DNA from: Escherichia phage vB_EcoM_Ozark
Reading direction: 5' to 3' (one strand)
Sequence record: NC_054927.1
Length of the DNA stretch: 64,000 nt
This document shows, piece by piece, positions 36,126 through 38,990 of this stretch. Both the position numbers and the translations under genes were made by a program. Positions within the stretch are counted from its first letter, which is position 1. Each line of letters begins with the position of its first letter. The notes under the pieces are model-generated. The model saw only the letters and a program-made list of their open reading frames with translations. It made no database searches and was not told the DNA's origin.

Positions 36126-36155
36126 CCAAAAAGCCCCAACCTTTCGGTCGGGGCT
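36126..36155 (-). terminator. Terminator hairpin downstream of the 36163-36636 gene
   Basis: GCCCCGACCGAAAGGTTGGGGC hairpin with G-U pair followed by a short T-run; near-identical to the 36685 copy. Confidence 0.5.
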
Positions 36156-36162
36156 AAGAATG

Positions 36163-36636
36163 TTATTTGATTTGTTTAGCAGACCAAATGCGGTCTTTAA
36201 TAATTTTTTGGATGTCTTCAACATACTCAAGAGAGTGAGCATGTGGGTTATCTTTAAAACTATAAGCACGAGCTAACTTTTGACCTTCAGTTTTGATTAC
36301 TAAAAGCTCTTTAAGGATAGCTTCATATCTGGAGATAATTCCTTTAACAATATTTTTTTCTTGTGTAGCTTTAGGATCTGCTTTAGGAGCAGGTTTACCC
36401 GAAGCCTTTGCAAAAGCAGCGCCAGTAGCAACTAAACTTTTCCAGGCCATACTAACTGCATTCCCTGTAAATCCTTCGGCTTTCATATCACGAGCAAATT
36501 GGAATCGTGATTCATCGGAAGCATCTTTATAGGAATATTTACCCGCGGCAATGGCTGCTTTTGCGACAGCTTGAATTTCGGTGCTAGACGCTTCATTTAA
36601 CACCGCTTCATTTAAAAATTGAGTATATGATTTCAT
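36163..36636 (-). CDS. Putative packaged protein with capsid-targeting-like N-terminus
   Basis: 157-aa ORF beginning MKSYTQFLNEA (compare MKTYQEFIAEA); Ala/Lys-rich; flanked on both sides by near-identical terminator hairpins. Confidence 0.45.
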   Translation of the reverse strand: MKSYTQFLNEAVLNEASSTEIQAVAKAAIAAGKYSYKDASDESRFQFARDMKAEGFTGNAVSMAWKSLVATGAAFAKASGKPAPKADPKATQEKNIVKGIISRYEAILKELLVIKTEGQKLARAYSFKDNPHAHSLEYVEDIQKIIKDRIWSAKQIK

Positions 36637-36684
36637 CTTATTTCCTGTTTTAATTCGTGAATTTAATATACTAATATTTATACT

Positions 36685-36712
36685 AAAAAAGCCCCAACCT
36701 TTTGGCTGGGGC
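36685..36712 (-). terminator. Terminator hairpin at the distal end of the tRNA/stable-RNA operon
   Basis: GCCCCAGCCAAAAGGTTGGGGC hairpin followed by TTTTTT on the minus strand. Confidence 0.55.
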
Positions 36713-36764
36713 TAAGCCTTGCGGCAACCTTGTCGGGGTTCCACCTGCTAAGGCAAGTGTTTGT

Positions 36765-36856
36765 ACGAAACGCCGGGATTCGAACCCGGTTATTAAGTAG
36801 TTGACGCTACTCAATATTTTTAAAAGGCCATATCTCAACCATATCCGAACGTTCCG
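36765..36856 (-). ncRNA. tRNA-like stable RNA (acceptor and T-arm present, no canonical anticodon arm found)
   Basis: T-arm CCGGG-TTCGAAT-CCCGG and a 7-bp acceptor pairing found by hand; ~92 nt; anticodon stem-loop could not be folded canonically; position corresponds to where T4 carries small stable RNAs downstream of tRNA-Arg. Confidence 0.3.
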
Positions 36857-37029
36857 TCAAAAACGCTACTCGGCTTACGGCAAAGATATTTCCTCGAATC
36901 GATAATTCGGTGCGCCGTTTCTGCTGTGATATAAGGGGGCATTAACAAAACATAAAGATTTATTAATGCCAGTCCTTAAACAGGGAACATCAGTCCGACG
37001 ACTTGCCGGTAGCGACCCGGCTTCTTGTC

Positions 37030-37105
37030 TGGTCGAGGCAGTAGGGATCGAACCTACGACCCAGGACTTAGAAGGTCCTTGCTCTTCCTTCTGAGCTATG
37101 CCCCG
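37030..37105 (-). tRNA. tRNA-Arg (anticodon UCU)
   Basis: Hand-folded cloverleaf: acceptor CGGGGCA/TGCCTCG, D-stem GCTC, anticodon loop CTTCTAA, T-loop TTCGATC, CCA encoded. Confidence 0.8.
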
Positions 37106-37109
37106 TAAT

Positions 37110-37185
37110 TGGGGTGACCGATGGGAGTCGAACCCATGACTACGAGAATCACAATCTCGAGTTCTACCAACTGAACTACGGCCAC
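37110..37185 (-). tRNA. tRNA-His (anticodon GUG)
   Basis: Hand-folded: acceptor 7 bp, anticodon stem CGAGA/TCTCG with loop TTGTGAT, T-loop TTCGACT, discriminator C, CCA encoded. Confidence 0.7.
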
Positions 37186-37299
37186 ATTAATACCTACTCC
37201 AATAATCAAGATGTCTTCACACGAAATTAAGAGAAGAGTGATCAGTTCAACCCCTATAATCGCGTCAAGTAGATATTAATGTGACAGTTGTCACAAATT

Positions 37300-37374
37300 T
37301 GGCGGACGTGATAGGATTCGAACCTATAACCAATCGCTTAACAGGCGATCGCTCTGCCATTGAGCTACACATCC
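37300..37374 (-). tRNA. tRNA-Asn (anticodon GUU)
   Basis: Hand-folded: anticodon stem ATCGC/GCGAT, loop CTGTTAA, T-loop TTCGAAT, CCA encoded. Confidence 0.75.
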
Positions 37375-37378
37375 AAAT

Positions 37379-37465
37379 TGGTGGGGAGTGGTGGAGTCGA
37401 ACCACCCGAGTCGCAATGACAATGGATTTACAGTCCACACCGCTACCTCTACGGGATAACTCCCC
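37379..37465 (-). tRNA. tRNA-Tyr (anticodon GUA), long variable arm
   Basis: Hand-folded: exact 7-bp acceptor GGGGAGT/ACTCCCC, anticodon loop CTGTAAA, ~15-nt variable arm, T-loop TTCGACT, CCA encoded. Confidence 0.7.
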
Positions 37466-37478
37466 TTAATTCTTAATT

Positions 37479-37553
37479 TGGTGGCCCTGGGTGGAATTGA
37501 ACCACCATCTGGCGATTATGAGTCGCTTGCTTGAACCTTCCAGCTACAGGGCC
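37479..37553 (-). tRNA. tRNA with anticodon CAU (elongator Met or Ile with modified C34)
   Basis: Hand-folded: exact acceptor GGCCCTG/CAGGGCC, anticodon loop CTCATAA, T-loop TTCAATT, CCA encoded. Confidence 0.7.
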
Positions 37554-37554
37554 T

Positions 37555-37630
37555 TGGTGCTGATTGACGGAATCGAACCGCCGACCTTCTCATTACAAGT
37601 GAGTTGCTCTACCTACTGAGCTAAATCAGC
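37555..37630 (-). tRNA. tRNA-Thr (anticodon UGU)
   Basis: Hand-folded: exact acceptor GCTGATT/AATCAGC, anticodon loop CTTGTAA, T-loop TTCGATT, CCA encoded. Confidence 0.75.
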
Positions 37631-37635
37631 AAAAC

Positions 37636-37725
37636 TGGCGGAGGCGATAGGATTTGAACCTATGAGTCGCCGGAGCGACTGCCGGTTTTCAAGACCGGTG
37701 CATTAAACCACTCTGCCACGCCTCC
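37636..37725 (-). tRNA. tRNA-Ser (anticodon UGA), long variable arm
   Basis: Hand-folded: exact acceptor GGAGGCG/CGCCTCC, anticodon stem CCGGT/ACCGG with loop CTTGAAA, variable-arm hairpin GTCGC/GCGAC, CCA encoded. Confidence 0.8.
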
Positions 37726-37727
37726 AG

Positions 37728-37801
37728 TCTCCATACAAGGATTTGAACCTTGGACCTCCTGATCCCAAATCAGGCGCTCTACCAAACTGAGCTACACGGA
37801 G
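37728..37801 (-). tRNA. tRNA-Pro (anticodon UGG)
   Basis: Hand-folded: anticodon stem CCTGA/TCAGG, loop TTTGGGA, T-loop TTCAAAT; CCA not encoded. Confidence 0.75.
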
Positions 37802-37811
37802 TAAATTAAAT

Positions 37812-37885
<74 letters not shown>

Positions 37886-37890
37886 AAATT

Positions 37891-37977
37891 TGGTGCGAGA
37901 AGTGGGACTCGAACCCACAAGGAAATCATTCCGCAGCATTTTAAGTGCTGTGCCTTTACCAATTTGACCATTCTCGC
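37891..37977 (-). tRNA. tRNA-Leu (anticodon UAA), long variable arm
   Basis: Hand-folded: exact acceptor GCGAGAA/TTCTCGC, anticodon stem CAGCA/TGCTG with loop CTTAAAA, T-loop TTCGAGT, CCA encoded. Confidence 0.8.
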
Positions 37978-38702: not shown

Positions 38703-38990
38703 TTACCATTTATGATAATACATATTTACGATGCATTCAAGACCCAAAGGATTCTTGAAAATATCATATTCAAGAGGACCTTTTTCCGTTTCAATAAAGA
38801 AATCAAAATTTACTGTATTAAATTTACGGTCTTCCTTCACTAATTTAACCTGAGAAGATGAACGGTCAATGTAAACCTTTTCAACTTCAAAACATGTTAA
38901 AATGCCATAATCATCAATCAAGGCTTTAGCTGCTTCTTGATCATATTTATATCCATTTTCAACGGATGATACTTTCGCATAAAGAATCAT
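38703..38990 (-). CDS. Hypothetical protein
   Basis: 95-aa ORF. Confidence 0.4.
   Translation of the reverse strand: MILYAKVSSVENGYKYDQEAAKALIDDYGILTCFEVEKVYIDRSSSQVKLVKEDRKFNTVNFDFFIETEKGPLEYDIFKNPLGLECIVNMYYHKW

Follow-up and report, generated by a model that had tools for sequence, protein, structure and literature searches.

We wanted to define what is encoded directly 3' of the tRNA cluster of Escherichia phage vB_EcoM_Ozark, where a preliminary description made from the sequence alone had placed one tRNA-like element in about 300 bp of structured, non-coding DNA. For this, we analysed a window of 64,000 nucleotides of the phage genome (NC_054927.1), in which the segment lies at 36720-37029 and is read on the minus strand. 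The phage is T4-like (Tequatrovirus). When positions 36640-37320 were searched by megablast, 894 phage records matched, nearly all from T4-like phages of Escherichia, Shigella, Klebsiella, Yersinia and related hosts, and the best matches were 96-98% identical. Ten tRNA genes were found in a row at 37030-37977 on the minus strand by ARAGORN and Rfam, the last of them being a tRNA-Arg (UCU) with an encoded CCA (37030..37105, minus strand; Rfam tRNA, 63.9 bits). As had been proposed, the segment holds no plausible ORF, the longest on either strand being of 51 aa with a TTG start, and its GC content (0.43-0.47, like that of the tRNA cluster) is above that of the coding DNA downstream (0.33-0.37) and of the DNA upstream of the cluster (0.25-0.30).

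The stable RNAs rnaC and rnaD of the T4 family were first found in the 1970s. In the T4 reference record, they appear as two misc_RNA features directly 3' of tRNA-Arg, rnaD being described as 'small, stable RNA; species 2 RNA' (119 nt) and rnaC as 'species 1 RNA' (139 nt). The segment aligned base for base with T4 rnaD and rnaC after tRNA-Arg, in line with the earlier suggestion that small stable RNAs of the T4 type might be encoded here, and the window was colinear with T4, both the order and the strand of tRNA-Arg, rnaD, rnaC, trailer and terminator being shared. Conservation relative to T4 was mosaic along the locus: identity reached 139/139 (100%) in rnaC (36764-36902), 94% in the trailer and 86% in rnaD, yet only 66% in tRNA-Arg (37030-37105). 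The region is shared with phage RB3 at 98.2% identity, and the ncRNAs rnaC and rnaD annotated in that phage transfer to 36764-36902 and 36908-37028, respectively. Judged by these alignments, 36720-37029 (minus strand) encodes orthologues of T4 rnaD and rnaC. Since both RNAs are annotated in T4 and in RB3, the feature is already known and we are dealing with a rediscovery of T4 rnaC/rnaD. What had been described as one element at 36765-36856 had to be redrawn in two respects. The tRNA-like RNA, rnaC, occupies 36764..36902 (minus strand, 139 nt), because its 3' strand finds its conserved partner in the mature 5' end, at 36895-36902. Further upstream in the segment, ~36908..37028 on the same strand holds a second and different RNA, rnaD, and the two are separated by an AAUUA spacer (36903..36907, minus strand) that corresponds to a gap of 5-6 nt in the T4 and RB3 annotations.

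In T4, the species I and II RNAs lie within a tRNA precursor of ~1.75 kb that terminates after the species I RNA (PMC2330249). In RNA-seq and on Northern blots, RNAC and RNAD of T4 were seen to accumulate late; they were described as 'of yet unknown functions' and termed small regulatory RNAs, expressed late (PMC9697503). One of the oligonucleotides published as Northern probes for T4 RNAC is an exact match to positions 36845-36902 of the window (PMC9697503), so that the stable transcript seen in T4 applies to an identical sequence. In another account, their 'biological roles are unknown' (PMC3014915), and a recent SegB paper on the T6 tRNA region makes no mention of rnaC or rnaD.

Compared with the T4 rnaC/rnaD locus, nothing essential was different; the Ozark phage has 10 tRNAs, a divergent tRNA-Arg, and an extra ORF with a second terminator copy after the first terminator. 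Downstream of rnaC, a conserved 3' trailer (36714..36760, minus strand) is predicted to fold into three small hairpins, and the tRNA-rnaD-rnaC unit ends at an intrinsic terminator (36684..36713, minus strand), in which a GC-rich stem of 10 bp leads into a U tract. No late-promoter motif was found directly upstream of rnaD, the nearest such motifs (TATAAATA) being at 38944-38951, upstream of the cluster, and at 36675-36682, downstream of the terminator. The latter lies inside an insert of ~560 bp relative to T4 and RB3 (36132-36713, minus strand), together with an ORF of 157 aa (36163-36636) that matched phrog_2280 (unknown function) and no Pfam family. The insert carries a near-identical second copy of the terminator (36132-36155 as compared with 36690-36713) and looks like a small cassette between duplicated terminators. 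On the other side, a tRNA-His gene that RB3 does not have at that place lies between tRNA-Arg and tRNA-Asn, and is separated from tRNA-Asn by a tRNA-free gap of 114 bp (37186-37299) with the palindrome TGTGACAGTTGTCACA at 37280-37295. Many close relatives align with the query in two pieces and have an extra ~360 bp, for which a hypothetical protein or an endonuclease is annotated.

For the fold of rnaC, homologues were collected by distant BLAST searches of a phage collection, by pattern scans of IMG/VR and by a metagenome scan, with the covariance model R1 as a filter. In the window, R1 matched rnaC alone (163 bits). A total of 28 distinct sequences was obtained from at least five named genera, the sampled phages belonging to Tequatrovirus, Winklervirus, Kanagawavirus, Karamvirus and Gelderlandvirus or being unclassified Klebsiella phages. 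IMG/VR added five new sequences, among them L086, in which the P2 and P6 stems are new throughout; the R1-filtered IMG/VR and metagenome scans yielded no lineage beyond those sampled and no further loop variant. The 5' half of rnaC comes in two sequence types that can barely be aligned; nonetheless, the length from the 5' end through CAA is held at 141-144 nt in 28/28 homologues. When RNAalifold was run blind on 20 sequences, a cloverleaf was recovered. The rnaC of the window folded alone gave the same cloverleaf, with an MFE of -50.2 kcal/mol (z = -4.57), and most divergent homologues also reached it in single-sequence folding. On the basis of these predictions, rnaC is modelled as a 139-nt cloverleaf made of an acceptor-like stem, a long D-arm-like hairpin, a 10-bp hairpin and a T-arm. 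Related phages keep the secondary structure through many compensatory changes: with the full model on the 28-sequence alignment, 91.2% of the cells were paired and 20 pairs had changed on both sides. The covariation score was 0.314, as compared with 0.153 +/- 0.008 in column shuffles (0/500 reached 0.314) and at most 0.099 with slid partners. This alignment (A5) was itself aligned to the model; in the MAFFT alignment A3, the column layout was identical to that of A5 and the picture was unchanged.

The acceptor-like stem, P1, brings together UCGAUUCG at the 5' end (36895..36902, minus strand) and CGUUUCGU at 36765-36772. It is a weak helix of five Watson-Crick pairs and three U.U, with an invariant tandem U.U and a terminal pair (column 1/142) that is either U.U or A-U, and it was supported separately by RNAalifold and by single-sequence MFE. 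Its column 4/139 was A-U in 12 sequences (the T4 clade) and G-C in 16 (all others). A short D-stem-like helix, AGG/CCU, is also present. In the long D-arm-like hairpin (P2-P5; 36830..36889, minus strand), which carries loop 1 (UUGACG, 36855-36860), compensatory changes were seen in all five loop-adjacent pairs of P5 and likewise in the pairs of P2; its stem is wholly different in the Gelderlandvirus, Klebsiella and KMB17 phages, with the loop retained. An A-rich linker connects it to the 10-bp hairpin P6 (36791..36816, minus strand; loop 2, CGUCAA, 36801-36806), in which 8/10 pairs showed compensatory changes. The T-arm CCGGG-UUCGAAU-CCCGG that had been noticed previously is present at 36773-36789 on the minus strand, and the third pair of its stem covaries (G-C in 14 sequences, U-A in 12, A-U in 1 and G-U in 1). 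Beyond P1 come a discriminator-like A (36764) and then CAA (36761..36764, minus strand; 3' end from the T4 and RB3 annotations). The NCAA tail is invariant in 28/28 homologues, the genome encoding CAA and not CCA. The annotated mature ends of T4 rnaC are exactly both ends of P1 plus the one discriminator-like A, and this end geometry is that on which RNase P and CCA enzymes act.

No canonical anticodon arm had been seen in the element, and indeed the only hairpin at the place of one is P6, whose 6-nt loop is the exact reverse complement of loop 1 in 28/28 homologues. In five sequences, from Klebsiella phages, the loops are UUGGCG and CGCCAA, which turns an A-U into a G-C inside the proposed 6-bp helix (column 46/103: A-U 23, G-C 5), the other five loop-loop pairs being invariant. 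The loops are kept even though the stems beneath them have been fully replaced (L086, L005, L015 and L026). Since the loops are complementary and change together in the Klebsiella phages, the sequences indicate an intramolecular 6-bp kissing loop that would lock the two long arms of rnaC, although this covariation may stand for one evolutionary event. In the T4 clade, each rnaC loop has the same 9 nt before it, a direct repeat of GAGUAGCGU. In the homologue of Enterobacter phage KMB17 (L026, 1201-1342), the 5' strand of P5 with loop 1 is complementary over 13 nt to loop 2 with the 3' strand of P6, and one long duplex is favoured over two kissing hairpins in its MFE structure. HIV-1 TAR-TAR* is a fully paired kissing complex of two exactly complementary 6-nt loops. 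Likewise, rnaC has two complementary 6-nt loops, but its contact would be intramolecular.

A further contact was suggested by the unpaired GG at 36828-36829, which stands at the position of G18/G19 if the long hairpin is taken as an insertion into the D-loop. This GG covaries with positions 55-56 of the T-loop, one pair going from G.U in 25 sequences to C-G in 3 and the other being G-C in 28/28. Such a contact would resemble the tRNA elbow; the evidence for it is weaker than that for the kissing loop, because the change amounts to one or two events, in lineages whose T-loop has been remodelled to UGCAUKC. In these, belonging to Winklervirus and Kanagawavirus (L002, L003 and L020), the T-loop is UGCAUUC or UGCAUGC and the upstream GG is CG. 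Their T-loop is not tRNA-like, meaning that T-loop mimicry is not universal among the homologues. Dimerisation through the palindromic GCAUGC of such a T-loop could occur.

How far rnaC is a tRNA was then considered against the known families. ARAGORN found neither tRNA nor tmRNA in the rnaC/rnaD region, and no tmRNA anywhere in the window. RF00005 gave no match at rnaC, which scored under the threshold of every tRNA model; the best was tRNA-Sec, with 17.5 bits for a threshold of 47 (E = 1.3). With tRNA (RF00005), rnaC shares the four-arm cloverleaf, the 5-bp T-stem, the UUCGAAU loop, the covariation of GG with T-loop positions 55-56, and paired 5' and 3' ends with one unpaired nucleotide before a CCA-like tail, and its 8 + 5 stacked positions are those of bacterial tRNA-Sec. 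It differs from tRNA by its 139-nt length, by a hairpin of ~60 nt in the D-loop, by the three U.U of its acceptor-like stem, by a genome-encoded CAA in place of CCA, and by a 10-bp 'anticodon' hairpin whose 6-nt loop belongs to the proposed kissing pair instead of being a free loop of 7 nt. A T-arm with a UUCRANY loop and GG elbow covariation is thus found in rnaC, the loop excepted in Winklervirus and Kanagawavirus. The tRNA-like domain of tmRNA and YrlA mimic the acceptor/T-arm or the T-arm/D-arm on a non-tRNA body and are matured by tRNA enzymes. The likeness of rnaC to both is a mimic of part of a tRNA attached to a non-tRNA body. In contrast to tmRNA, rnaC has no tag reading frame and is not called as tmRNA by ARAGORN, and it differs from YrlA by having no Ro-binding helix; its body, locked by the proposed kissing loop, has no counterpart in either. 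YrlA (RF02553) did not match at rnaC, its sole weak match (17.7 bits for a threshold of 69) being over tRNA-His and tRNA-Arg. More generally, the Rfam search returned only tRNAs and sub-threshold noise, with no family covering rnaC or rnaD, either at gathering thresholds over the whole window or at E <= 10 over 36600-37320.

The second RNA, rnaD, has no T-arm and is not tRNA-like. Fifteen distinct homologues were found, from Tequatrovirus, Dhakavirus and Gaprivervirus. They consist of a 5' hairpin RCCGG[GUCGCUA]CCGGY, a closing helix GUCGUCG/CGGCG(C)AC, in which the 3' end ACGGCG(C)AC pairs with GUCGUCG, and a variable central hairpin. The 5' domain (~45 nt) and a 3' segment (~20 nt) are invariant in the three genera, apart from the closing pair of the 5' hairpin, which covaries (A-U 11, G-C 3, G.U 1). 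RNAalifold gave 24 pairs, six of them with compensatory changes, and the MFE was -39.1 kcal/mol (z = -3.79). The central hairpin (~36935-36980; columns 52-100 of alignment A4) comes in three unrelated versions, of the window/T4, T2 and Dhakavirus types, and sits between its invariant flanks like an exchangeable cassette. The annotated 5' end of rnaD is one nucleotide after the CCA of tRNA-Arg, and its 3' end is one or two nucleotides past the closing helix, 5-6 nt before rnaC. Such ends would fit a course in which the neighbours are processed and exonucleases then trim what remains.

The two RNAs do not always occur together. We found rnaC in the middle of the tRNA cluster in Karamvirus, Winklervirus and Gelderlandvirus, and directly 3' of a protein gene in one Klebsiella phage. 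No recognisable rnaD accompanies it in Karamvirus, Winklervirus, Gelderlandvirus, Kanagawavirus or the Klebsiella phages. Conversely, rnaD is present and rnaC cleanly absent in Dhakavirus (L006, L030) and Gaprivervirus (L031). As each occurs without the other and at varied sites, each behaves as a separate gene. In Dhakavirus, rnaD (...GGCGCACCGAA) is fused straight to the conserved trailer (CACUUGCC...), and this retention of the trailer without rnaC suggests that it may have a role of its own. The RNAs are named in few records only (T4, RB3, RB68, Kha5h and GiZh); elsewhere, rnaC homologues are often mis-annotated as tRNA-Phe, tRNA-Lys or one to three 'hypothetical proteins', or carry nothing. 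For instance, the record of Enterobacter phage KKP_3262 has a 96-nt tRNA-Phe(gaa) over its rnaC homologue (L004, 1504-1599), a call that ARAGORN reproduces using a non-conserved stem.

We propose, with a probability of roughly 0.6, that the rnaD and rnaC of the T4 family come from the 3' end of the tRNA operon and are released by host enzymes, and that rnaC is a non-decoding tRNA mimic, probably a decoy. Both RNAs would be transcribed at the 3' end of the operon and freed by the tRNA-processing enzymes of the host. In this reading, rnaC would retain the 'top half' of a tRNA, with an acceptor-like stem built from its own ends, a T-arm and an elbow-like contact between GG and T-loop, while the D-loop would carry the hairpin of ~60 nt and the 10-bp hairpin would replace the anticodon arm. 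Because its body would be locked by loop-loop pairing, no anticodon would be presented, which makes it a non-decoding mimic. From the rules of tRNA processing, we infer that RNase P would recognise the stacked acceptor stem and T-arm and cut at 36903|36902, the 5' end of P1, that 3' exonucleases would trim to A36764, and that the CCA-adding enzyme would mend the encoded CAA to CCA. There is a background for such CCA repair in the T4 tRNAs with no encoded CCA (PMC11143913). The processed ends and compact fold would stabilise rnaC, and rnaD would be a separate structured RNA whose ends result from maturation of the tRNA-Arg 3' end on one side and from RNase P cleavage at rnaC on the other. In trans, the most probable role of rnaC would be that of a decoy or titrator, occupying a factor, for instance a defence nuclease or a host enzyme directed at tRNAs, by which their acceptor, T-arm and elbow are recognised. 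T4 remains viable on laboratory hosts when its tRNA region is deleted, and any role of rnaC or rnaD would therefore be conditional. The decoy role is a guess, motivated by the architecture and by the literature on tRNA clusters and defence only, in which phage tRNA clusters were recently linked to evasion of tRNA-cleaving defences (PMC13096335; bioRxiv 10.1101/2023.03.15.532788). A bolder version of the proposal is that rnaC founds an undescribed class of phage tRNA mimics, locked by a kissing loop and serving in anti-defence as decoys for a host factor that reads acceptor and elbow, for instance a defence nuclease directed at tRNAs or a 3'-end-modifying toxin; this we regard as quite unlikely.

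Other explanations of the locus were weighed. In T4-like phages, rnaD and rnaC come last in the transcription unit, right before the terminator, processing of its neighbours would set both ends of rnaD, and the trailer is conserved. All this would suit structured RNAs that act in cis, shielding the tRNA precursor from 3' exonucleases or ordering its processing, and that are by-products without any function in trans. However, the mid-cluster position of rnaC in Karamvirus, Winklervirus and Gelderlandvirus and its place after a protein gene in one Klebsiella phage speak against such a module, as does the complete identity of rnaC to T4 next to a tRNA-Arg of only 66%. Moreover, a length fixed at 141-144 nt, with loops and tandem U.U invariant while stems are replaced, exceeds the needs of an exonuclease block, and we hold the cis explanation to be unlikely. 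Slightly less likely still is that the RNAs are base-pairing sRNAs, whose single-stranded segments (the A-rich linker of rnaC, the 5' domain of rnaD and its GUCGCUA loop) pair with host or phage mRNAs. Their label as small regulatory RNAs expressed late (PMC9697503) and the invariance of the first ~45 nt of rnaD in three genera, which suits a seed or a protein-binding site, are in its favour. Against it, antisense matches of at least 14 nt were absent from the 64-kb window, shorter ones being AT-rich and at chance level; the conserved bases of rnaC are mostly in helices or in the loop-loop pair; and no trans-acting sRNA has been characterised in T4 (PMC3014915).

A further candidate is a decayed tRNA pseudogene, with roughly the outline given in the preliminary description: a 92-nt element with a T-arm, a lost anticodon arm and an acceptor stem of 7 bp formed by ACGGAAC (36851-36857) and GUUUCGU (36765-36771). 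The two strands are complementary, perfectly so over 7-8 bp in the T4 clade, and it is the same stem on which ARAGORN bases its tRNA-Phe in the homologous 96 nt of KKP_3262, but this is not a conserved pairing. Across 20 homologues, none of its pairs showed a compensatory change, and it was mismatched in most homologues outside the T4 clade: the fourth pair was an A.C mismatch or otherwise unpaired in 11/20, and in sequences of type B the stem has decayed even more. Its strand ACGGAAC(G), at 36851-36857, shares nucleotides with loop 1 and with the long hairpin's 3' strand. All three substitutions that set the T4 clade apart from the remaining homologues of type A preserve pairing in the cloverleaf (A-U to G-C in P1, U.G to U-A in P5) and yield an A.C mismatch in the alternative stem. 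Enforcing that stem in the mature RNA gave -34.7 as compared with -50.2, a penalty of 15.5 kcal/mol, and it predicts an RNA of 94 nt where 139 nt are annotated. Strong purifying selection and 20 covarying pairs are also unlike a pseudogene, which makes this origin very improbable. The last candidate is short protein-coding genes, since many GenBank records annotate hypothetical proteins across the region. The ORFs are of at most 51 aa, with a TTG start in 5/6; substitutions compensate within RNA helices and follow no reading frame, and stem segments are replaced at constant length, so that coding appears hardly credible.

Altogether, ~50 years after their discovery, rnaC and rnaD still have no function assigned to them (PMC3014915, PMC9697503), and hundreds of sequenced T4-like phages, therapeutic candidates among them, carry them. 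What is new here is the correction of the limits and of the acceptor stem, a cloverleaf supported by covariation with a proposed kissing-loop lock, and the record of a gap in Rfam and of widespread mis-annotation; a covariance model such as the one built here would mend the poor annotation. The vague label 'tRNA-like' is replaced by specific, testable elements, namely an acceptor stem made of the true ends, a tandem U.U, an elbow and a kissing loop. This is timely, as phage tRNA clusters are now tied to evading tRNA-cleaving defences. If the decoy role of rnaC is true, it would be an RNA anti-defence element placed among the replacement tRNAs of the phage.
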